Notes: generated from the sequence alone by a model not told the origin. A stretch of DNA of 9,233 bases from Escherichia coli (GCF_003334255.1 NZ_QOWU01000090.1); one strand, 5' to 3'; positions 487-9,233 are shown, numbered from the stretch's first letter. Made by a program: numbers and translations.

Positions 487-1053
487 TTATTCAGCTTTAA
501 TACGCTGTACAGTTGACTTGGCAACGTTGAATTGAGCGGCTACTTTAGCGATTGAACTACCAGCAGCAAGAGCAGCTTTAATACCTTCTCTGTCAACCGC
601 TTTACCGTTACCCCTTCCAACTACACGACCAGCAGCTTTAGCAGCTTCATAACCTTCTCTTTGACGCTCAAGCATCATTTTACGTTCAGCTTCAGCCACT
701 GCTGAAAAGATTGTGAGAATCATCTTAGACGTGGGGTTATCGTCACCAGTTATCAGACCTTCTTTGTGAAAGTGAACCTTGATACCTTTCTGTGAAAGTT
801 TATCCACCAGCGTTAATACATCCACGGTAGAGCGCCCTAAACGTGACAGGTCGTGTACATGGATAGTGTCACCTTCACGAACATAATCGAGCATAGCCTT
901 TAGTTGTGGACGGTCTGTATTCTTCCCAGATGCTTTATCAGTAAATACCTTATCCAGTACGACCCCTTCAAGTTGACGGTCTGTAATCTGCTGGATTGAT
1001 GAAACTCGAACATAACCAATGTTAGCCATAATATACTCATTTGCCTTACTCAT
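487..1053 (-). CDS. Small serine recombinase (resolvase/invertase family)
   Basis: 188-aa ORF. MANIGYVRVSSIQQ matches the catalytic-serine N-terminus of the family (compare Hin MATIGYIRVSTIDQ). Also DRPQL, LSRLGRS, an E-helix AEAERKMMLERQREG, and a C-terminal Gly/Arg arm plus HTH (IAKVAAQFNVAKSTVQRI). The family-typical start is the internal ATG at 1029 (M-A-N-I-G-Y); 1053 is the longest-ORF start. Confidence 0.9.
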   Translation of the reverse strand: MSKANEYIMANIGYVRVSSIQQITDRQLEGVVLDKVFTDKASGKNTDRPQLKAMLDYVREGDTIHVHDLSRLGRSTVDVLTLVDKLSQKGIKVHFHKEGLITGDDNPTSKMILTIFSAVAEAERKMMLERQREGYEAAKAAGRVVGRGNGKAVDREGIKAALAAGSSIAKVAAQFNVAKSTVQRIKAE

Positions 1054-1156: not shown

Positions 1157-1339
1157 GCCTAAGAGATGGAGATGCCTTTACAGCAACTCACATAGAAAGT
1201 CAATAGATATTTGGCTTTTTTGCAAAGGGGGTCACATAGCTGGTGTGACGGGTACTTAGCAGGTATAGACCTGTGATAGATATTTTCGAAGATTCGGGGA
1301 AGATGAGATTCAAAGAGGGCTAGTCATTTTTTATAAAAA

Positions 1340-1477
1340 TTTTCAGACTCTGAAAAGTTACTGTACAGATTTTATACAGATATCTTTAAAGTATCTGTAA
1401 AGACTTTTAAGATAAGAGATAGATATCCCAGAAAGGATATCCGTTTAGAAAACCTGTTAAGTATCTCTTAAAAGAGA
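1340..1477. promoter_or_regulatory. Cluster of four unrelated dyad symmetries in the recombinase/methyltransferase divergent intergenic region
   Basis: TTTTCAG-ACT-CTGAAAA 1340..1356; TACAGATA-N9-TATCTGTA 1375..1399; GATATCC-N6-GGATATC 1422..1441; TCTCTT-AA-AAGAGA 1464..1477. All arms are perfect. Confidence 0.5.
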
Positions 1478-1521: not shown

Positions 1522-2184
1522 ATGTCAATTGAGCATATTTTAATCGGGAAACATCATGGGGGTTCTGATTACTGGAGAACTCCATTTCTTATATTCCGCA
1601 ATTTGCACCGTGAGTTTAGTTTCAGTCTGGATGGTGCTGCAACTGAGCATGACACGCTGTTACCACGATTCACCAATGATATTCACAATCAGTCATGGGA
1701 TGGTGAACGGGTGTTCTGTAACCCACCATACAGCGACACTAAAACATTCCTCCTAAAAGCCGCTGAAGCGGATTTAGCGGTATTCCTGATACCGTACCGA
1801 CCCCACACCACATACTGGCTTAAGCACCTCTTCACAAACCCGCTTTGCCATGAAATCCGTATTCTTCATCGTGCAGTTAAATACCTTCCACCAGCAGGGC
1901 ATAACGGGCTTGCTATTAGGTCACCGTTTGCAAGTGCAATTGTCATCTTTAAAACTGAGCCACGCAGACATGAAATTACGCAGATGATTTGCTGTGCTGA
2001 TACATTGCTACCGTTAACCATCATTAACAGAGGAGGCTTAAGAGGAAGACCCACCATTTACCCACCTGAGACGCTCGACAGCTTCATAAAGCTATACAGG
2101 CAAGGAAAACCCATTAAGTGCATTGCAGATGCTCTCAGAATGCCTCTGAGCACGTCATACAGGATTGCGCAAAGGTTGAGCTAA
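1522..2184 (+). CDS. Phage Dam-type DNA N6-adenine methyltransferase with a C-terminal resolvase-type HTH domain
   Basis: 220-aa ORF. DYWRTP...FSLDGAA...W-x3-VFCNPPYSD follows the phage Dam family layout (PF05869-like), with catalytic NPPY at nt 1720..1731. From GRP (nt 2044) the last ~46 aa read as a Hin/resolvase-type DNA-binding domain (GRPTIY...IKCIADALRMPLSTSYRI). There is no SD before ATG 1522, so the start is uncertain. Confidence 0.8.
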   Translation: MSIEHILIGKHHGGSDYWRTPFLIFRNLHREFSFSLDGAATEHDTLLPRFTNDIHNQSWDGERVFCNPPYSDTKTFLLKAAEADLAVFLIPYRPHTTYWLKHLFTNPLCHEIRILHRAVKYLPPAGHNGLAIRSPFASAIVIFKTEPRRHEITQMICCADTLLPLTIINRGGLRGRPTIYPPETLDSFIKLYRQGKPIKCIADALRMPLSTSYRIAQRLS

Positions 2185-2550: not shown

Positions 2551-3489
2551 ATGTCTAAATATAACCCAAATCAGTTTTATAAATTTGATGTGCGAATCTC
2601 TCAGCTTTCAGAAGAAATTAACGCAGCAGCAAGATTAATTTATATGGTCATGGTTCATAGCTGTGATTTCTATGAAGAGAAGTACAAAGCATATTCACCA
2701 AGTATTGACCATCTAGCTTATATGGCTGGTGTTTCAAAGAGAACGGCAATCAGAGCTATTGAGACACTTGAGAAACACGGTTTAATTCAGGTGCAAAAGA
2801 ATCAGGGTCGTCAAAGCACTTATCGTGTATTCACACTGGATGATAAGCCGGAATTACTTGTAAGACCTACATCACAGGAAGTTGCAGCCTCAGTAAGACA
2901 AAATGACACCACTACCAGTGACAAAATGTCATCAGTACCAGTGACAAAATGTCATGGGGGTAGTGACAAAATGTCACCCGTGTTAGATAAGTTATTAGAT
3001 AAAACATTAGATAATAATATTATAGATAAGAGTAAAGATACTGAACTTGATGTTGGTATCAATGAAGATGATTTTCTTTCTTTGGATGAATTAAATGATT
3101 TTCTCTCTATGAATGAATCTGACCTTGATAGTGAAGCTACTAAAGAGACCTCTAAAACATCTGACTTAGAGGAAGATAAAATCTCTGATGTGAATGAAGT
3201 TAGTGACCAGCAAGATACACCTTGCCGCCTCGAATCAACTGATGATGAATTACCGGATGTTGACCTTGATGATGAAGAAGACCCTGAAGAGGAATTGAAA
3301 CGTGAACAGCGTAAAGCAGAAATTAAAGAAAGATTCAGAAAGGCAAAGCTAAAGAACAGGATTGATGAACTTGATGACTTTGATGATAGTGACGATGATT
3401 TTACTTTTACACCAAAAAAGAAAACTCACACCGAGCCAAAGAAAGAAAAAGTTAAAGTCAGACGTGTTTATGCTGGAGGAATGTTTTAA
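2551..3489 (+). CDS. Replication-initiator-like protein: N-terminal winged-HTH (HTH_36-like) and a long acidic C-terminal half
   Basis: 312-aa ORF. ARLIYMVMVHSCD...YSPSIDHLAYMAGVSKRTAIRAIETLEKHGLIQV...STYRV is the HTH pattern seen in phage/plasmid initiators. Iterons and an AT-rich tract lie inside the gene (2892..3029). SD GAGG lies 10 nt upstream. The gene is translationally coupled to the next ORF. Confidence 0.7.
   Translation: MSKYNPNQFYKFDVRISQLSEEINAAARLIYMVMVHSCDFYEEKYKAYSPSIDHLAYMAGVSKRTAIRAIETLEKHGLIQVQKNQGRQSTYRVFTLDDKPELLVRPTSQEVAASVRQNDTTTSDKMSSVPVTKCHGGSDKMSPVLDKLLDKTLDNNIIDKSKDTELDVGINEDDFLSLDELNDFLSMNESDLDSEATKETSKTSDLEEDKISDVNEVSDQQDTPCRLESTDDELPDVDLDDEEDPEEELKREQRKAEIKERFRKAKLKNRIDELDDFDDSDDDFTFTPKKKTHTEPKKEKVKVRRVYAGGMF
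2892..2976. repeat. Four phased iterons (candidate origin of replication inside the rep gene)
   Basis: AGTGACAAAATGTCA at 2917..2931, 2940..2954 and 2962..2976. Copies 1 and 2 are identical over 20 bp (TACCAGTGACAAAATGTCAT). A degenerate copy AGTAAGACAAAATGACA lies at 2892..2908. Spacing is 23/23/22 bp. Each copy contains the dyad TGACA-AAA-TGTCA. Confidence 0.75.
2983..3029. repeat. AT-rich tract with 12-bp-phased TTAGATAA repeats (candidate DNA-unwinding element)
   Basis: TTAGATAA at 2983..2990, 2995..3002 and 3007..3014, plus ATAGATAA at 3022..3029. It lies immediately 3' of the iterons and is encoded as LDKLLDKTLDNNIIDK. Confidence 0.55.
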
Positions 3490-3779
3490 TGAAAGAATAT
3501 AACGGTGAAAAACGATACAAAGATTATCTATTAAGGCGCTACAGCATTTCTCGTGAAGGTCATCTTCTGAAAGATACTCATGGGGAGGTTTACCGGATTC
3601 GACCGAAGAAGGAAGGAAAGAATTATTTCTTTTTTGATGGTGTGACAGATTTAAAGATTGACGCTTTGAGGTTTGCAGTGATGTATCATTTTGATGTCTG
3701 GGATTCAGTCCACCAGCTACGATTAAAAGACGGTGACCCCGGTAATCTGAAGGCCACCAATATCATCACAAAACGTTAG
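3489..3779 (+). CDS. Hypothetical 96-aa protein, weak resemblance to HNH_3/NUMOD4-type phage endonuclease scaffolds
   Basis: ATG overlaps the rep stop (TAATG). YSISREGHLLKD...GKNYFFFDG...H-x4-KDGDPGNLKATN loosely follows the Y-x-V-S-x-x-G ... H-x-DGD-x-x-N-x-x-x-NL pattern, but the key Asn/His positions look degenerate. Confidence 0.5.
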   Translation: MKEYNGEKRYKDYLLRRYSISREGHLLKDTHGEVYRIRPKKEGKNYFFFDGVTDLKIDALRFAVMYHFDVWDSVHQLRLKDGDPGNLKATNIITKR

Positions 3780-3961
3780 TTTGTTTTACCATCATCAATC
3801 GTAATTGTGATTTCATATTTGAAAAGCTTAATGCTGAAATTGAATCGTGTACTTTTGGCGATAATCATTTTTAAAAGCTGATACACCAGAAGCACCAGAA
3901 ACACAAAGCAACCTAAGCTTGCGAATCTGTGAGATTCAGCAATTGTTTCAAGAAAGCCCAT
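3776..3961 (-). CDS. Small single-pass membrane protein (61 aa)
   Basis: Good SD AAGGGG 5 nt before the ATG (3961..3959). Hydrophobic segment LGCFVFLVLLVYQLL. It has its own promoter (4012..4040). It converges on, and overlaps by 4 nt, the 3489..3779 gene. Confidence 0.5.
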   Translation of the reverse strand: MGFLETIAESHRFASLGCFVFLVLLVYQLLKMIIAKSTRFNFSIKLFKYEITITIDDGKTN

Positions 3962-4011
3962 TAATTCCCCTTATTTATCAAAGGGAATGACCTGTATCAG
4001 CCCCTATAACC

Positions 4012-4040
4012 ATAATATCATGTAAATGAGATGTTGACAA
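4012..4040 (-). promoter_or_regulatory. Sigma70 promoter for the 61-aa membrane protein
   Basis: - strand TTGTCA (4040..4035), 17 nt, TATTAT (4017..4012). Its -35 overlaps the -35 of the divergent + promoter. Confidence 0.55.
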
Positions 4041-4062
4041 TATGTTAAATAAATGTTAAGAT
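4034..4062 (+). promoter_or_regulatory. Near-consensus sigma70 promoter of the 4099..5374 operon
   Basis: TTGACA (4034..4039), 17 nt, TAAGAT (4057..4062). It is overlaid by three tandem 11-bp repeats: ATGTTGACAAT, ATGTTAAATAA, ATGTTAAGATT (4031..4063). Confidence 0.65.
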
Positions 4063-4098
4063 TGTAGTATGAGTAAGAGATTTAAGGAGATTTTTACA

Positions 4099-4389
4099 AT
4101 GACTCACACAGTTACGCGCCTTTTGCCAGAGGCATTTGAACGACTGGCAGCAATCAAAGCCAAATATCCCGATATGAAGCACACAGCGCTTGTTGCAGAG
4201 GTTTTAAAAGAGCCGGTAGACTTGACCCCTTTCGATAACGTTAAGGGCGTTGCAGAGGGTTCTAAGGCCATCAGAATCACAACGGGCCAACTGGAACTAC
4301 TCAAAGCACAGTCCGCAGTAGCAGGTTGCTCAATGATTCAGGTCTTAAGCGCAAAGGTTCATCAATTAGCGGATAAGCTGGGGGTTTAA
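4099..4389 (+). CDS. Small DNA-binding-like protein with two tandem ribbon-helix-helix-like segments
   Basis: SD AAGGAG (4083..4088), 10 nt, ATG 4099. The ORF track starts at ATG 4069, which coincides with the predicted transcription start. TVTRLLPEAFERLAAIKAKYPDMKHTALVAEVL and AIRITTGQLELLKAQSAVAGCSMIQVLSAKV each fit a strand-helix-helix pattern. This was judged by eye only. Confidence 0.6.
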   Translation: MTHTVTRLLPEAFERLAAIKAKYPDMKHTALVAEVLKEPVDLTPFDNVKGVAEGSKAIRITTGQLELLKAQSAVAGCSMIQVLSAKVHQLADKLGV

Positions 4390-4814
4390 TGCTATGTACA
4401 TTTGATTATCATGCGTTTTATCGACATAGAGGTCATCTTGTCCGTGAGAATAACGGAACATGGAAAGATTTAACTCGTAATGCTGAACCCTTCACACACC
4501 AGCAATTAAAATCCCGCTTCTCCAGATGGAAGAATGCACCAGCAGATACTGGTGATTTTGAGATTATCCATACCTTCGATTATGCCTCAGAAGATGACCT
4601 TCACGATGCAATTAAGCTGATTGAAGACTTCAATACCTCAGAAAATGTGGATGGTGACAAATATAAATCCCGTGGTAACCGCTATAACCGTGATGATATC
4701 ACTCAGGCCATAAATGCTGGTCAATCTCAGCGATACATTACAGAAAAATATGGTATTTCACGGAGACAGTATTTCTACGTTAAATCATTGATTAATAAAG
4801 ACAATTCAAAATAA
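4389..4814 (+). CDS. Hypothetical 141-aa protein with a C-terminal resolvase-type HTH
   Basis: ATG overlaps the upstream stop (TAATG). The C-terminus DDITQAINAGQSQRYITEKYGISRRQYFYV resembles HTH_7. The N-terminal ~100 aa are unrecognised. Confidence 0.6.
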   Translation: MLCTFDYHAFYRHRGHLVRENNGTWKDLTRNAEPFTHQQLKSRFSRWKNAPADTGDFEIIHTFDYASEDDLHDAIKLIEDFNTSENVDGDKYKSRGNRYNRDDITQAINAGQSQRYITEKYGISRRQYFYVKSLINKDNSK

Positions 4815-4820
4815 CCATCT

Positions 4821-4920
4821 CAGTAACGGTAGAATGCACTTTACAGGCAGAGTTGCACCTTAATTTGATAAATTACCTTACCAGCCAGTGCAACTCCCTC
4901 TGTAACCCGCATGGTTACTG
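4821..4920. other. 100-nt imperfect long hairpin / cruciform-capable element
   Basis: Nested arms: CAGTAAC 4821..4827 / GTTACTG 4914..4920; ATGC 4834..4837 / GCAT 4909..4912; TTACAG 4841..4846 / CTGTAA 4900..4905; GAGTTGCAC 4850..4858 / GTGCAACTC 4888..4896. That is 26 bp in total, with a 29-nt AT-rich apical loop. Confidence 0.6.
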
Positions 4921-4973
4921 GCCTCAGAATGGCTATTTTAAGAGGTCTGAGATGTGTTTTAGAGGAATTTAAA

Positions 4974-5297
4974 ATGAGCAATTACGAATTACAGATTTTC
5001 GTTGATAACGACACCGCTATGATGATTCAGGCTTTCAGTGATTCCGGTGTATCAATTGATTTTGACAGGCTGTTAAAGCTGATGGCTGATAATGCAGAAA
5101 ACATCTCTGACTTTATTCAGTCGGTGGAGTTTAACGAGCCTCGAATGATGCTACCAATTACCGACTCAAACATGAAAAGATTGGTTATCGAGCAAACGAA
5201 CAAACACAGTATTTCCCCAGAGCAATTTTTGAAAGGTGCTGTGACAATCCTGCACAGCGATAATATTCTGGTGACGGATTCTATGAGGGTTCACTAA
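4974..5297 (+). CDS. Hypothetical 107-aa protein
   Basis: SD GAGGA (4963..4967), 6 nt, ATG 4974. The longer ORF start at 4911 lies inside the hairpin element and has no RBS. The C-terminal MLPITDSNMKRLVIEQTNKHSISPEQFLKGAV is weakly RHH-like. Confidence 0.6.
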   Translation: MSNYELQIFVDNDTAMMIQAFSDSGVSIDFDRLLKLMADNAENISDFIQSVEFNEPRMMLPITDSNMKRLVIEQTNKHSISPEQFLKGAVTILHSDNILVTDSMRVH

Positions 5298-5374: not shown

Positions 5375-5406
5375 TGTTACCAATCTGTTAAAAAGCTGTT
5401 GACAAA
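5374..5406. promoter_or_regulatory. Three tandem 11-bp TGTT repeats ending on the -35 box
   Basis: ATGTTACCAAT 5374..5384, CTGTTAAAAAG 5385..5395, CTGTTGACAAA 5396..5406. The same unit and phase occur at 4031..4063. Confidence 0.55.
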
Positions 5407-5427
5407 TAACCTTAAGCATGGCATAAT
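5399..5427 (+). promoter_or_regulatory. Near-consensus sigma70 promoter with no adjacent conventional gene
   Basis: TTGACA (5399..5404), 17 nt, CATAAT (5422..5427). A second -10-like TATATA follows at 5430..5435. Confidence 0.65.
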
Positions 5428-5433
5428 TGTATA

Positions 5434-5652
5434 TATGAGGATAGTCTTCTATCCGAAGTCTATAGGAAGAGCAATTTTTCCTAAAATCATATTTTCAATA
5501 ATCCGATGGATGGATATTCTGAGTTGGAAAGGTGCAATGCTTTTCGTCATGGCCTTTCAGTTTAGTCTGAGAGGTCATCTCAAAAAGTGCTTAATCATTC
5601 ATTATTGAACCCTTACAGCTTTGCCCTAACTCATGATTAGGGCGTTTTCTTT
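5434..5652 (+). ncRNA. Candidate ~0.2-kb structured short transcript (promoter to first terminator); alternative reading is a leaderless 57-codon ORF at 5435..5608
   Basis: It is bounded by the promoter above and terminator T1. Hairpins: GGATAG-TCTT-CTATCC 5439..5454; TAGGAA-N9-TTCCTA 5463..5483; GAAAGG/CCTTTC 5527..5558; TGAGA-GGTCA-TCTCA 5568..5582. No SD-preceded ORF is present. An ATG at 5435 sits at the predicted +1 and opens MRIVFYPKSIGRAIFPK... (rich in ATA/AGA codons). Confidence 0.35.
5623..5652 (+). terminator. Intrinsic terminator T1
   Basis: GCCCTAA (5623..5629), 7-nt loop, TTAGGGC (5637..5643), then GTTTTCTTT. Confidence 0.65.
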
Positions 5653-5721
5653 AAGAGTTTTGAAACAGAGCTTTTAAAGAAAGTTTTCCTGAAACTTCGT
5701 TAACGTTATAAGCAAACCTTC

Positions 5722-5757
5722 AAAGCCCTTCACAGATTATGTTTAGGGCTTTTCTTA
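5722..5757 (+). terminator. Intrinsic terminator T2 (3' half nearly duplicates T1)
   Basis: AAAGCCCT (5722..5729), 15-nt loop, AGGGCTTT (5745..5752), within the T-rich run TTTTCTT (5750..5756). Confidence 0.55.
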
Positions 5758-5842
5758 ATAGAGCATCTTTAATAAATCGTTAAGTCATCTTCTAAGTGTA
5801 TTGGCGTTGAAGGTGCTCTATTAAGAAATAACCACACTTAGA
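5754..5842 (+). promoter_or_regulatory. Leader with two interleaved inverted repeats reaching the RBS of the 5854 gene
   Basis: CTTAATAGAGCA 5754..5765 / TGCTCTATTAAG 5814..5825 (12 bp perfect). TCTAAGTGT 5791..5799 / ACACTTAGA 5834..5842 (9 bp perfect); its 3' arm overlaps the start of the SD GAGGA 5841..5845. Confidence 0.45.
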
Positions 5843-5853
5843 GGAAAAAAATA

Positions 5854-6564
5854 ATGACAAACGATATTTACATTAATGGCAAAGTGATTGATAGCTTCGG
5901 TGACTGGTCACCACAGACTGAACATCCAGCTATCGCTATTCAGCGCAAAGAGCACGATGCGAGAATTGCACTTGAGCAATCGCTAAAGATGACACCAAAG
6001 GAAATTACCTTTGTGGCTCCTGAACCTCAAGAGATGCCCGATATTGGCAAAACTGAAGCATTATTTAATCTTGAGCGCGAATATTACCCACAGTTAAAAG
6101 AACAGCGCCTTAGATTAGATGACGCTTACAGCAAAGTTACCTTGATGCAATCAGCTATTGAGCCGTCAGAATTTGAGATTCAGGATGAATTGTCACAGAA
6201 ACCATTTGTCTATTACCAATACGAAGACAATGATGGTTTTGGTACTTTTCCAGAAAACATCACAGGCGTGATTAGTAGTCTTCCTGATGGATATCGAATT
6301 GTGAAGATGGTTAAAGCTTCAAGAGGTGCTGGTCAGTTTATTTACATGACCAATAAGAGCGATGAAGAACTCCGTGAAATTGCCAGACAGAACATCTTGG
6401 CATCACGTAACAAGCAACTTGAAAATGTTAAGTTGTATCTCTCAAGAGAGCTTCAGGCTATGAAAGAGCTTGTTAGTGAATATGAGTCGCAGAAGAAGAT
6501 TGCTATGCAAGCCGATATTGAGCAGCTTACGAAGATTTCTCAGAAGTATAGCAAAGCGATTTAA
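5854..6564 (+). CDS. Hypothetical 236-aa protein with a coiled-coil-like C-terminus
   Basis: SD GAGGA followed by an 8-nt spacer before the ATG. Long ORF with even, gene-like composition. The C-terminal ~70 aa are K/E/Q/L-rich (NKQLENVKLYLSRELQAMKELVSEYESQKKIAMQADIEQL). No family was recognised. Confidence 0.7.
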   Translation: MTNDIYINGKVIDSFGDWSPQTEHPAIAIQRKEHDARIALEQSLKMTPKEITFVAPEPQEMPDIGKTEALFNLEREYYPQLKEQRLRLDDAYSKVTLMQSAIEPSEFEIQDELSQKPFVYYQYEDNDGFGTFPENITGVISSLPDGYRIVKMVKASRGAGQFIYMTNKSDEELREIARQNILASRNKQLENVKLYLSRELQAMKELVSEYESQKKIAMQADIEQLTKISQKYSKAI

Positions 6565-6580
6565 TTTAAGTGAGGTGAGA

Positions 6581-6796
6581 ATGATTGATTTGCAACAGCG
6601 TTATGAAACTATTAAGTCGGCTTGTGAAAACTTAAAGTTACAAACCAAGCCAGCCTTAAGAATTAAAACCAAACATCAAATTATCACCTCACACAAACCA
6701 AAAACACGCAAGATTCCAAAGTGGTGTATTGACCGTATTCCTTCTGATGCTCAAATCATAGGTGAAACGGAATTACATTATCTTGTCCGACATTAA
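6581..6796 (+). CDS. Hypothetical 71-aa basic protein
   Basis: SD GAGGTGAG directly upstream of ATG 6581. The ORF track extends to 6470, but that extension overlaps the previous gene and lacks an RBS. Confidence 0.5.
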   Translation: MIDLQQRYETIKSACENLKLQTKPALRIKTKHQIITSHKPKTRKIPKWCIDRIPSDAQIIGETELHYLVRH

Positions 6797-6823
6797 AAAA
6801 GAATTGGTTGGGTAAAAATCAAC

Positions 6824-6866
6824 GGGAGAGATTATCGAGTGATATCGGTAGTTTCTCCCTTTTTTG
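6824..6866 (+). terminator. Intrinsic terminator after the 5854..6796 gene pair
   Basis: GGGAGA (6824..6829) pairs with TCTCCC (6854..6859). A short inner CGA/TCG pairing is possible. A TTTTTT run follows at 6860..6865. Confidence 0.5.
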
Positions 6867-6872
6867 TATGTG

Positions 6873-6915
6873 TGCTACGTGAAATCTTCTGAACAGATAT
6901 ACCCACCAAAAATTA
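6873..6915 (+). repeat. 43-bp direct repeat, copy A (promoter-like module upstream of the tape-measure gene)
   Basis: TGCTACGTGAAATCTTCTGAACAGATATACCCACCAAAAATTA. It is 36/43 identical to copy B at 9112..9154, and 25/27 over the first 27 nt. It contains TGAACA-17-TTATTT. GCTACGT 6874..6880 is inverted at ACGTAGC 6922..6928. Confidence 0.7.
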
Positions 6916-6956
6916 TTTTTTACGTAGCTCACGCTTAAAGAGGTGAAAAAATATGA

Positions 6957-9023
6957 ATGGCACAATTTAAAGTTGATGATTTTCTGATTGAGCTAGGTTT
7001 TAACTCTCAGAGGGTTTTAAAAGGTCTGGAAAAAGCCGAGAAACAAACGATGCAGGTAGCATCACGAATTGAGAAGCGATTGAATAAAGCTTTTAAAGTT
7101 AACCCTACGCCTTTAAATGATTCTCTCAAGGTCATGGAAAGAAATGTCGATAAAACTGTTTCCAAGATTGAGCAGCGTCTTAAAAACACTAAAGCGTTTA
7201 AGATTAAAACGGAAATTGAGGATACTTTAAAGCCACTTAGACAACCGAGACAGCCACGAATTAGCGGAAGCAGAGCAATTACAGCAGCGCATAGCGTGAA
7301 TATGAGCAAGCTTCGTGACTTTAATCCTATGCTTGAGAAGTATTTTAAAAGCCAGTATTACAGCTTAAGCAGTAAATCCAAGACACTTGGAAACGAAGCT
7401 TTTAATCGTGAGTTAGCAAAATTAAATCAATCTCTTCGTGAAACACTTTCTAAGTTTAACAAGACCACCAGCAAAAATAATCACAGTGAAAATGCTTCGA
7501 ATGGTCTGGATGTATTAGCTACGAGTGCAATCAAAGCAGGTACAGCCATTTATAGTTTTCAGACAGCCTTAGAAGCTTACAGGCGGATTATGGAGGTTGG
7601 TCTGAAAAAAGAAGCATCACAACGAGCGGCACAATTCGTTTTAGGTGATGAAGGTGCTAAACGAGCTACAGAATTTGTTAAGAATCTTGCTGATAGTAGT
7701 GGTGTAGACCAGATTGAAACATTAAGCAGTTTTGCTAAGTTTTCCGCTGGTGCTGGTGATATGAATGCAGACCAGAAAGAATCCTTATTTTCTAATGTGA
7801 TTGGTACATCCAGATTAATGGGGCTAAGCACCGATGAAATTAACGGGATTTTAAAAGCTTTCGAGCAGATGGCATCTAAAGGAAAGATTCAGGCTGAAGA
7901 GCTACGCGGTCAATTAGGTGACAGAATGGCAGGTGCTTTTCAGTTATTTGCCAGAAGTCTTGGGATGACTACGGAAGAATTAGACAAGGCTATGAAAGAC
8001 GGTAAGGTTCTTTCTAAAGATGTTCTCCCTAAAGTATCCGCTGAAATGGGAAAGATGATTGATAAAGCGGGAGGATGGGAAAAGATTATTAACTCTACTC
8101 AGACGCAGTTAGGCCGCTTAAGTAATTCATGGAATAATAATTTGGCCTTAATGTTCGATGGTTCACAGGAAGGTTTAACAGACTTTACAAGGTCACTGAC
8201 TAATTTACTTAATTCACTGGGTGGTCAATCTAAAAATCTTGGTGAACATTTTGGCGACTTGATGAAAAGCATGTCAAACGGTATTGATGATTTAACCACG
8301 ATTAGCTACCGAGTGCAGGGATTCTTTGACAGAGTGACCCTTGCTTACAGAGAATTAAATGACACTCAAAAAGCTGTAGCTGATGGTATCGCAAATGGCC
8401 TGTTAAGTGCATTAAAGGGACTTGCTGGTATTGTCGCTGTAAGGTCTGGTATTGGTGCTGTAGGTGGTATCTGGAACTTAATTAGGGCTATTTCCACGCT
8501 TGGGAATGTAGCAAATACAGCAGCAGGAAGAATTAATTCACGTTCTGGTGGTGTTGAAAGTGGAAAAAGTAGGCTATCTGTAGCTGATGCAATTACCAGA
8601 GTAATGATTGTCGGTATGACAACTGATGTGATTAATGCCATTGTCAAACCGTTCTATGAACGTCAGATGAGTAAGTCAGATAATCCGATTGATAAAGTTG
8701 TAAGGTCAAAGGTGGAACCCACAGACCAGGCATTAACTGGTGACATGAACTCTTTAGCCGCTGTTTTATGGGCTATGGTTCATGGCAAATCAAAAGATGT
8801 TCCACAGTTTTCACCTGAAGCATTAAATAATCTAAAAGGTCGAGTGGAAACATTCACACAAGATTTAAAGGTTATCAAGCCGTCAGTAAATATTCAGCCT
8901 CAGACAATCAATATCACAACTCAGACGGTACTTGATGGAAAGGTTATTGATGAAAGAACCACATCGCATATTAATCGTATGCAGGAAGATACCTTGATTA
9001 GCTCAGCTTACCCAGAGGAATAA
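6957..9023 (+). CDS. Phage tail length tape-measure protein
   Basis: 688-aa ORF. The core ...LMGLSTDEINGILKAFEQMASKGKIQAEELRGQLGDRMAGAFQLFARSLGMTTEELDKAMKDGKVLSKDVLPKV... is the conserved tape-measure block (TIGR02675-like). The N-terminal third is K/E-rich and helical. Gly/Ala/Ile-rich hydrophobic segments (GIANGLLSALKGLAGIVAVRSGIGAVGGIW) are typical of the family. SD GAGGTG lies at 6940..6945. Confidence 0.88.
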   Translation: MAQFKVDDFLIELGFNSQRVLKGLEKAEKQTMQVASRIEKRLNKAFKVNPTPLNDSLKVMERNVDKTVSKIEQRLKNTKAFKIKTEIEDTLKPLRQPRQPRISGSRAITAAHSVNMSKLRDFNPMLEKYFKSQYYSLSSKSKTLGNEAFNRELAKLNQSLRETLSKFNKTTSKNNHSENASNGLDVLATSAIKAGTAIYSFQTALEAYRRIMEVGLKKEASQRAAQFVLGDEGAKRATEFVKNLADSSGVDQIETLSSFAKFSAGAGDMNADQKESLFSNVIGTSRLMGLSTDEINGILKAFEQMASKGKIQAEELRGQLGDRMAGAFQLFARSLGMTTEELDKAMKDGKVLSKDVLPKVSAEMGKMIDKAGGWEKIINSTQTQLGRLSNSWNNNLALMFDGSQEGLTDFTRSLTNLLNSLGGQSKNLGEHFGDLMKSMSNGIDDLTTISYRVQGFFDRVTLAYRELNDTQKAVADGIANGLLSALKGLAGIVAVRSGIGAVGGIWNLIRAISTLGNVANTAAGRINSRSGGVESGKSRLSVADAITRVMIVGMTTDVINAIVKPFYERQMSKSDNPIDKVVRSKVEPTDQALTGDMNSLAAVLWAMVHGKSKDVPQFSPEALNNLKGRVETFTQDLKVIKPSVNIQPQTINITTQTVLDGKVIDERTTSHINRMQEDTLISSAYPEE

Positions 9024-9111: not shown

Positions 9112-9154
9112 TGCTACGTGATTTCTTCTGAACAGATACCAACATCAAAAATTA
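9112..9154 (+). repeat. 43-bp direct repeat, copy B
   Basis: TGCTACGTGATTTCTTCTGAACAGATACCAACATCAAAAATTA. It is followed after 2 bp by the IS end. Confidence 0.7.
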
Positions 9155-9156
9155 GA

Positions 9157-9233
9157 TGAACCGCCCCGGGTTTCCTGGAGAGTGTTTTATCTGTGAACTC
9201 AGGCTGCCAGATCATTGTTTCCGATGGAAGCAT
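9157..9233 (-). mobile_element. Right end (IRR plus end of orfB) of an IS629/IS1203-like IS3-family insertion sequence, continuing beyond the window
   Basis: From 9157 the sequence reads TGAACCGCCCCGGGTTTCCTGGAGAGTGTTTTATCTGTGAACTCAGGCTGCCAGATCATTGTTTCCGATGGAAGCAT. From memory this is the reverse complement of the IS629-type right end (TG...CA termini, IR TGAACCGCCCCGGG). G+C jumps abruptly relative to the flanking DNA. Confidence 0.85.
9199..9233 (-). CDS. IS3-family transposase OrfB, C-terminal fragment (truncated by the window edge)
   Basis: The reverse-strand frame reads ...ASIGNNDLAA then stop (tca 9199..9201 on +), matching my recollection of the IS629 OrfB C-terminus (...YYASIGNDDLAA). 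Confidence 0.7.
   Translation of the reverse strand, partial: ASIGNNDLAA

Follow-up and report, generated by a model that had tools for sequence, protein, structure and literature searches.

A tape measure gene of Escherichia coli resides in a compact chromosomal island that may be a PLE-like satellite of Felix O1-type phages

PLE satellites of Vibrio cholerae carry a large serine recombinase (LSR) and their own Rep and parasitize the virulent myovirus ICP1 (PMC12987554). The tape measure protein (TMP), chaperone, and baseplate hub of PLE11 are 20%, 20%, and 41% identical to those of ICP1, chimeric tails are 10 nm shorter, and an 80-amino-acid (aa) PLE11 protein, Rta, blocks the phage TMP; PLE, which has been studied experimentally, both defends and transfers (PMC12987554). 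TMP genes also occur in mycobacterial EPIPs (2025 preprint, PMC12822802) and in some cf-PICIs (Extended Data Fig. 10, PMC12987554), and interference with tail assembly, likewise a recent finding, is employed as a mobile-element defense by the Tai systems (PMC11364771). Satellites with their own tape measure and baseplate-core proteins were recognized only in 2025-26 (PLE11 and the mycobacterial EPIPs). Here, a TMP gene of Escherichia coli was examined on a stretch of 9,233 nucleotides (nt) (GCF_003334255.1, NZ_QOWU01000090.1), which at its full length is referred to as the window. The gene (positions 6957 to 9023, plus strand, encoding 688 aa) belongs to a compact integrative chromosomal island with its own Rep and iterons and not to a phage late operon, and the only virion genes of this island are the TMP gene and the adjacent gene for a tail tube initiator.

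The interior of the window matched, in pieces and at 80 to 95% identity, the chromosomes of 569 of 5,426 complete E. coli genomes (~10%). Intact islands are ~11.2 to 11.5 kb in size and have the gene order small serine recombinase (where present), dam, rep, small open reading frames (ORFs), genes for a 236-aa and a 71-aa protein (p236 and p71), the TMP gene, a gene annotated as encoding a "phage baseplate protein," and the LSR gene. Strains UMNK88 (NC_017641.1), EC20017429 (NZ_CP071711.1), and GN02350 (NZ_CP095518.1) are among the carriers of an intact copy. Two integration sites were found in the complete genomes, one between yciI and tonB and one splitting yecE. The LSRs of these two sites, with Resolvase, Recombinase, and Zn_ribbon_recom domains, are only 34 to 36% identical to each other, and the LSR gene is absent from the window copy. 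The names attached to protein matches gave E. coli, Shigella, and Salmonella as hosts, and a scan of genome contigs yielded one island locus, in Escherichia albertii only. No homologues of sheath, tube, chaperone, hub, capsid, or terminase proteins were found in 12 loci, including their 10-kb flanks. A literature search of limited coverage returned no satellite of Felix O1 or the Ounavirinae and nothing on the yciI/tonB integration site.

The 688-aa protein qualified as a TMP in every comparison and is a full-length homologue of the 742-aa TMP of Felix O1, with which it aligned end to end (ORF67, BLASTP); identity to the Felix O1 TMP was 27 to 30% across island alleles. Profile matches were obtained to PF20155 (TMP_3; 9.5e-21), TIGR02675 (1.3e-16), and phrog_4036 (3.8e-93), as was a match to the solved 742-aa chain 9ndy_F, "Tape measure protein (gp017)," which covered residues 1 to 78 and 199 to 688 (E = 1.7e-74). 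Residues identical to the Felix O1 TMP numbered 23 of 40 at the N terminus (residues 1 to 40), 51 of 80 in the core (residues 281 to 360), and 22 of 48 at the C terminus (residues 641 to 688), where an SSxYPEE motif is conserved. These three conserved segments would be the expected contacts with the chaperone, tube-initiation, and terminating partners. By its matches, the TMP is assigned to the contractile-tailed (Felix O1) lineage. TMP alleles are 679 to 716 aa long, all of them shorter than 742 aa (by 26 to 63 aa), and the allele classes are only 44 to 53% identical. Islands that share nearly identical p236, p71, and integrase genes (loci L014 to L017 and L050 to L068) carry TMPs only 44 to 53% identical to that of the window. 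The TMP alleles are mosaic between islands, and since near-identical p236, p71, and integrase genes stand beside different TMP classes, the tail genes are exchanged as modules.

In intact islands, the TMP gene is followed by a gene encoding a 256-aa tail tube initiator with a Dit_like domain, which is missing from the window because of an insertion sequence (IS). The initiator matched chain 9ndy_A, "Tube initiator protein (gp018)" (5e-108), and is 68% identical to Felix O1 ORF68, the product of the gene directly after the Felix O1 TMP gene. Identities to phage proteins were 65 to 75% (up to 73.6% with coliphage relatives), and 299 phage records were matched; among the matches listed, all were Felix O1-type phages or related Erwinia/Pectobacterium phages. 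Between island copies, the initiators are 64 to 92% identical, leaving out one truncated copy of 166 aa, so that their likeness to the phage protein equals their likeness to each other. When every island ORF was compared with the Felix O1 genome (tblastn), matches came only from the TMP and the gene that follows it; these two are in the same order as in Felix O1-type myoviruses. The two genes are separated by ~175 nt in the islands, whereas in Felix O1 the stop and start codons share one nucleotide. Felix O1 and the Ounavirinae phages are virulent. A preliminary description of the window had presupposed the late operon of a long-tailed phage, a premise that fell with the recognition of an ~11.5-kb island without sheath, tube, capsid, or terminase genes. 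Its suggestion of a separately controlled or acquired cassette was close to right, because the TMP and the next gene alone have phage homologues and each lies behind a hairpin or terminator. The arithmetic of its predicted tail of roughly 100 nm was also sound: 688 aa at 0.15 nm per residue gives ~103 nm, which is about 8 nm shorter than the tail set by the 742-aa Felix O1 TMP.

Likeness to Felix O1 extends to noncoding DNA in a control region upstream of dam-rep (1218 to 1461, plus strand), in the spacer that separates the small recombinase gene from dam. Positions 1218 to 1368 are collinear with noncoding positions 13301 to 13452 of Felix O1, and positions 1399 to 1461 (63 nt, with the palindrome GATATCC..GGATATC) are 84% identical to Felix O1 positions 21638 to 21578, an intergenic segment between the divergent ORF40 and ORF41 that contains TTGACA-type promoter-like motifs. 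Comparison of the 63-nt piece with 50,697 phage records gave matches in 253 records (80 to 90% identity, E = 8e-9), all of them in unannotated DNA and all in Felix O1-like phages of Escherichia, Salmonella, Shigella, and Citrobacter. The noncoding segment upstream of dam-rep is a copy of Felix O1-type intergenic DNA. The motif CTGTWWAG occurs 54 times in the Felix O1 genome versus ~10 times expected, with 22 of the 54 occurrences in the 11% of the genome that is noncoding. Thirteen of these repeats lie at 12,845 to 13,688 in a 1.6-kb noncoding gap, which may be an origin or a regulator-binding array, and three CTGTWWAG motifs are present in the island spacer at 1176 to 1454.

Excision of the island was read from metagenome contigs. 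In contig L067, the integrase end of the island is joined directly to the recombinase/dam/rep end. The junction is an exact attP, with the island side of attR as its left arm and the island side of attL as its right arm around the shared core AAAATCA (P-AAAATCA-P'); the junction sequence contains GTGTATTTAAACGTGTCTAATAAAAATCATCAAGGTCTAAATACAC, and the attP arms form the inverted repeat AGTGTATTTA / TAAATACACT. Because this attP agrees exactly with the attL and attR of an integrated copy, the island excises precisely. Contig L024, 11,233 bp in length, has ends that overlap exactly by 55 nt; it is circularly permuted and without chromosomal flanks, and it carries a third LSR type, ~35% identical to the other two, which implies at least a third integration site. 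The predicted Rep, the iterons, and the resolvase-type recombinase are what an episomal phase would need. In a further metagenome contig (L035, positions 8051 to 8750), a truncated integrase gene is joined to the left end of the island with a short inverted segment; it is a rearranged derivative or a misassembly and, because it is rearranged, was not counted as evidence of a circle.

Pairwise dN/dS ratios were 0.10 to 0.32 for the TMP gene, 0.11 to 0.25 for the tube initiator gene, 0.17 to 0.31 for dam, 0.26 to 0.34 for p236, and 0.29 to 0.61 for p71. These ratios indicate that all genes tested are under purifying selection and that none is decaying.

The window itself holds an IS-truncated copy of the island without the attL arm, the tube initiator gene, and the integrase gene. 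Its left end is foreign (1 to 122; the ~110-nt attL arm of the island is gone), and positions 1 to 79 are a repeat that thousands of E. coli plasmid and phage records carry next to IS elements. At the right end, the part of the island with the tube initiator and integrase genes has given way to the end and terminal inverted repeat of IS629 (IS3 family; 9157 to 9233). In a near-identity DNA search of the whole window against plasmids and phages, matches were confined to these IS-derived ends. The exact p236 allele of the window was found only on draft contigs of 5 to 10 kb, one of which terminates in an rve transposase gene. Because of the mobile-element ends and the restriction of this allele to short draft contigs, the window is taken to be a draft-assembly contig bounded by insertion sequences. 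Between its ends lies a long run of plus-strand genes (dam, rep, the small ORFs, and the 236-, 71-, and 688-aa ORFs), and Rfam and tRNA scans of the window were empty. The window lineage probably holds an immobilized remnant of the island in which the TMP gene is intact.

The balance of these features tips, by a narrow measure, toward a satellite that parasitizes Felix O1-type phages in the manner of PLE and substitutes its own tail core for that of the helper. The chance falls just short of even for an undescribed satellite family of E. coli, Shigella, and Salmonella that senses its helper through copied control DNA, swaps the tail core, and uses p236 and p71 as diversifying anti-helper or specificity factors. 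Infection by the helper would activate the island, possibly through the helper-like control DNA, and the island would then replicate and supply its own TMP and tube initiator. These two proteins would be accommodated by the baseplate of the helper, the contacts being made by the three conserved TMP segments (N-terminal, core, and C-terminal) and by the initiator, which is 65 to 75% identical to its phage counterparts, and the TMP would use the chaperone of the helper or an unrecognized island protein. The outcome would be chimeric tails ~8 nm shorter that serve island transfer, or diverted tail assembly of the helper, or both.

Several points weigh against a satellite. Helper-driven induction, replication, packaging, and transfer, like interference with the helper, are conjectured, with the circular contigs and the helper-like noncoding DNA as indirect hints only, and neither a small terminase, a pac/cos mimic, a capsid-size factor, nor an excision cofactor was recognized in the island. 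A search of the IMG/VR viral contigs did not recover the attP junction, and the IMG/VR loci with the island are prophage-style predictions from genomes and metagenomes. The circular contigs could stem from spontaneous excision. A ~70-nt element upstream of the TMP gene is without a counterpart in phages or Felix O1, and no chaperone was found in the island, unlike in PLE. The window copy, having lost the tube initiator and integrase end, is not a complete functioning element.

Part of this evidence would suit equally an island dedicated to defense, in which the TMP and initiator (perhaps with p236 and p71) act as dominant-negative decoys, disrupting tail assembly in infecting Felix O1-like phages to the benefit of the bacterial population, and which is never packaged and moves via its recombinase or by other routes. 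The recognized gene content, with no packaging or capsid-remodeling function, is consistent with such decoys, as is the absence of the attP junction from IMG/VR, and interference with tail assembly is an established mobile-element defense (Tai, PMC11364771; Rta, PMC12987554). The satellite and decoy readings rest on the same facts and therefore differ only in whether the island is packaged. A decoy island, although the main rival, is nevertheless judged unlikely: Rep with its iterons, the resolvase-type recombinase, and the excised circles suggest that the island passes through a phase of replication as an episome, purifying selection acts on the TMP from end to end and has kept its termini and its length as in a working TMP, and PLE, the sole experimentally studied case with such gene content, defends and also transfers.

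A second alternative concerns p236 and p71, which could be tail assembly chaperones of an unrecognized type serving the island TMP. p236 (5854 to 6564, plus strand) is a predicted acidic coiled-coil protein of 236 aa, and p71 (6581 to 6796, plus strand) is a basic protein of 71 aa (pI 9.8) with the motif RKIPxWC[IL]D[RK][IL]P. The preliminary description had reported both ORFs upstream of the 688-aa TMP, had seen no chaperone frameshift pair there, and had allowed for chaperones of an unrecognized type; both observations were borne out, and the option it left open gained no support. No in-frame X_XXY_YYZ heptamer occurs in the p236 or p71 ORF. The p71 frame is open upstream to 6464 and overlaps the p236 ORF by 101 nt in the +1 frame, solely through an extension without a ribosome-binding site (RBS), as had been described, and the start at 6581 has an RBS of its own (GAGGTGA). 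Across five islands, the frame of the second ORF relative to the first was +1, +2, 0, +1, and +2, and no productive in-frame slippery heptamer was found; since the frame relation varies and the overlap occurs only in the window, the +1 extension is incidental. As a positive control, the same script applied to Felix O1 ORF65/66 returned T_TTT_TTC and a 92-codon -1 frame ending exactly at the TMP start.

Homology searches likewise connected neither protein with chaperones. At cutoffs of E <= 0.1 or 0.01, p236 and p71 matched nothing in Pfam, PHROGs, or NCBIfam, so that neither was named a standard chaperone or tube protein, and nothing was found in PADLOC or in PDB sequence searches. Nothing significant was obtained by BLASTP of either protein against the Felix O1 chaperones, and p236 had no match among the 50,697 phage records (tblastn). 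The Felix O1 chaperone ORF65, as a positive control, scored 1.7e-19 on Pfam PF21822; because this profile finds the Felix O1 chaperone at once but no island ORF, there is no recognizable chaperone in the island. In its predicted structure (pLDDT 79), p236 folds into an elongated hairpin of antiparallel helices that is interrupted by a small alpha/beta insert, for which generic coiled coils were the sole matches in a fold search. Without a profile match or a conserved frameshift relation, the assignment of p236 and p71 as chaperones is regarded as improbable, more so than the decoy island. A cryptic chaperone could exist, since the PLE chaperone was recognized only by structure.

On the satellite reading, p236 and p71 would be accessory proteins and candidate helper interference or specificity factors. 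Both are island-specific, with alleles 23 to 91% identical for p236 and 43 to 79% identical for p71. Between islands, p236 and p71 diverge while the flanking leader, terminator, and TMP sequences are 89 to 98% conserved. Synonymous divergence of p236 and p71 is high (dS, ~0.8 to 1.2), for which reason their divergence is attributed to old alleles exchanged as a cassette and not to recent positive selection. A search of 1.84 billion representative proteins found 24 representatives of p236 (~6 at full length, the rest mostly short fragments), together with four long proteins matched over short stretches only; with relatives so few and mostly fragmentary, no function can be transferred to p236. 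"Transposase," a frequent NCBI name for its homologues, was discarded, as it is supported by no NCBIfam, Pfam, or PHROG model.

A decaying prophage remnant whose tail module happened to survive is very improbable: although annotation pipelines and IMG/VR treat the region as prophage-like and both ends of the window copy are truncated by IS elements, the same compact intact gene set recurs in the 569 complete genomes, where it occupies at least two sites and the integrase type goes with the site, dN/dS is 0.1 to 0.6 for all genes tested, precise excision was seen, the 10-kb flanks hold no other structural gene or fragment, and the homologous phages (Felix O1 and the Ounavirinae) are of the virulent kind.

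In the simplest reading, a chain of terminators precedes the tail genes, and their expression would proceed by read-through or antitermination from a promoter at 5399, possibly with a factor-dependent start in the ~70-nt element. This promoter (5399 to 5427, plus strand; TTGACA-17-CATAAT with TG) is the best sigma-70-type promoter of the window and has been retained in every island compared. Downstream of it lies a conserved, structured leader of ~330 nt (5434 to 5765, plus strand; z = -6.2 versus shuffles) with terminator-like hairpins at 5622 to 5644 and ~5723 to 5757, and some leader stems vary on both arms between islands. The leader could be a terminated regulatory RNA or a target of antitermination. 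A 17-nt perfect antisense match was noted between leader positions 5661 to 5677 and Felix O1 positions 37717 to 37733 (ORF59, the gene after the major capsid gene), and the 17-nt site is also exact in ~19 phage-sized IMG/VR contigs (82 to 94 kb) that are probably Felix O1-like. The match is reminiscent of the PLE small RNA SviR and yet probably due to chance; it was set aside, as the full 17-mer is present in 4 of 52 islands, most of which keep 15 nt, near the chance level.

An intrinsic terminator with a 15-bp stem and a following T run, TTTTTTGTAT (6824 to 6859, plus strand), is the best terminator-like site in the window. Every island compared has a hairpin with a T run at this place between p71 and the TMP gene; the stem occurs in two variants, with differences on both arms. 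The ~70-nt element follows (copy 1; 6873 to 6941, plus strand), with the inverted arms GCTACGTGA (6874 to 6882) and TTACGTAGC (6920 to 6928), which are also written GCTACGTGA/TCACGTAGC or GCTACGTGA ... TYACGTAGC. Copy 2 (9112 to 9156, plus strand), which in intact islands precedes the tube initiator gene, is truncated by IS629 at ~9157. The 43-nt repeat shared by the two copies (6873 to 6915 and 9112 to 9154) is 84% identical, and its 26-nt core appeared in 0 of 200 shuffles. The element always precedes the initiator gene but precedes the TMP gene in only about half of the islands; in seven islands, just a few tens of nt separate the T run from the TMP RBS, and the intervening sequence holds no ~70-nt element. 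The terminator and 43-nt repeat that had been described between p71 and the TMP gene are thus in place, and of the proposed "terminator/promoter-like insulation" the terminator stands while the promoter-like part was not borne out, a consensus scan of the sequence from the terminator to the TMP start having yielded no sigma-70-like promoter.

A copied late promoter of the helper was considered as the identity of the repeat and rejected: the ~160-nt region upstream of the TMP gene had no blastn match in phages and no k-mers beyond chance in common with Felix O1, and ACAGATAY is not enriched in Felix O1 noncoding DNA. When positions 6797 to 6960 were folded as RNA, the arms of the ~70-nt element paired (9 to 11 bp closing a 33-nt loop), and an outer stem paired the U run of the terminator with the AAAGAGG RBS region of the TMP gene (z = -4.3), which may provide translational control of read-through transcripts. 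In the satellite reading, the tail genes would be kept silent, pending a signal, by terminators (two in the leader, a third ahead of the TMP gene, and a weak hairpin downstream of this gene). Their expression would probably depend on antitermination or on read-through of the terminators or, in islands that have the ~70-nt element at this place, could start from the element.

Among the remaining island genes, a small serine recombinase of the resolvase/invertase type (487 to 1053, minus strand) is 34 to 100% identical between islands and is found in either orientation or is absent. Inversion of this gene was considered and rejected, the cases being a different allele or an orientation variant. 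A putative Dam-type N6-adenine methyltransferase with a C-terminal helix-turn-helix (HTH) (1522 to 2184, plus strand; PF05869, 3.4e-15; HTH_7) is followed by a replication initiator-like protein with a winged HTH_36 domain and matches to replication-initiation PHROGs (2551 to 3489, plus strand), whose allele types are only 42 to 55% identical to each other. Four iterons of 22 to 23 nt, GTGACAAAATGTCA, lie inside the rep coding sequence (2897 to 2981), an arrangement that resembles a lambda O-type origin. Small plus-strand ORFs between 3489 and 5297 (96 aa; 96/106 aa; 141 aa; and 107 aa, acidic) and a 61-aa membrane ORF on the minus strand (3776 to 3961) had no family matches, and none of the small ORFs at 3489 to 5297 was recognizable as a tail chaperone. 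The C terminus of the 141-aa ORF looks like an HTH, and the structure model of the 107-aa ORF was poor (pLDDT 57; shallow alignment). PDB sequence searches with the 141-, 128-, and 106-aa ORFs and Rep returned nothing useful, and no phage or satellite protein was found when p236 and p71 were included. Promoter-like sites stand back to back between the 61-aa membrane ORF and the plus-strand small ORFs (4012 to 4040, minus strand; 4034 to 4062, plus strand) in a switch-like layout. A search of PADLOC-DB 2.0 returned no defense system, only an "orphan methyltransferase" (Dam) and weak HTH matches (Rep).

If the satellite reading is true, the island is an enterobacterial counterpart of the PLE-ICP1 system, and roughly one E. 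coli strain in ten harbors an element that could block or ride on Felix O1-like phages. Felix O1-group phages are commonly considered for typing, biocontrol, and therapy, and such islands could affect host range prediction and cocktail design. E. coli would also become a tractable model for chimeric tail assembly and tail length control. The annotation "tape measure protein" in a bacterial genome does not imply a prophage.

In layout, the control region resembles the lambdoid pR'-tR' (6S RNA) system, in which late genes are controlled by Q antitermination: a constitutive-looking promoter and a short terminated leader are followed by structural genes, with several terminators in between. The island showed no identifiable Q-like protein, and the analogy is one of layout only. 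With Tai and Rta, the island would share a mobile-element function aimed at a tail assembly step; compared by description, Tai and Rta are small inhibitors and not tail protein homologues, whereas the island carries such homologues. The EPIPs have a satellite-borne TMP and a serine integrase in common with the island, but EPIPs and cf-PICIs also encode capsid, adaptor, and small-terminase genes, of which the island has none. The capsid genes of cf-PICIs, a tyrosine integrase with AlpA, and primase-type replication (PICI, P4) were likewise unrepresented among the domains of any island ORF. Of the Felix O1 tail-core module (ORF65/66 chaperones with a -1 frameshift, ORF67 TMP, and ORF68 initiator; PDB 9ndy), the TMP and initiator are homologous to those of the island, which differs in having no chaperone pair, tube, sheath, or remainder of the baseplate and in having its own upstream elements for each gene.

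The closest likeness is to PLE, a likeness drawn from features, with the behavior of the island a prediction from sequence. The island is unlike PLE in its HTH_36-type Rep, its size of ~11.5 kb, and its lack of a recognized chaperone, nuclease, or capsid-scaffold analogue; its hosts are Escherichia, Shigella, and Salmonella and its presumed helper is Felix O1-like, whereas the helper of PLE is ICP1. Both elements are small and combine an LSR integrase and a replication initiator with iterons with a link to a virulent myovirus. The regulatory small RNA of PLE may be set beside the conserved structured leader of the island, and Rta of PLE11 (80 aa, fold not known) beside the 71-aa protein encoded next to the TMP gene. 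In both, several TMP allele classes occur, and the TMP is shorter than that of the helper, by 95 aa in PLE and by 26 to 63 aa in the island. Each carries its own divergent TMP, 20% identical to that of the helper in PLE and 28 to 30% identical to that of the presumed helper in the island, together with a better conserved baseplate-core protein, which is BhuB in PLE (41%) and the tube initiator in the island (65 to 75%).

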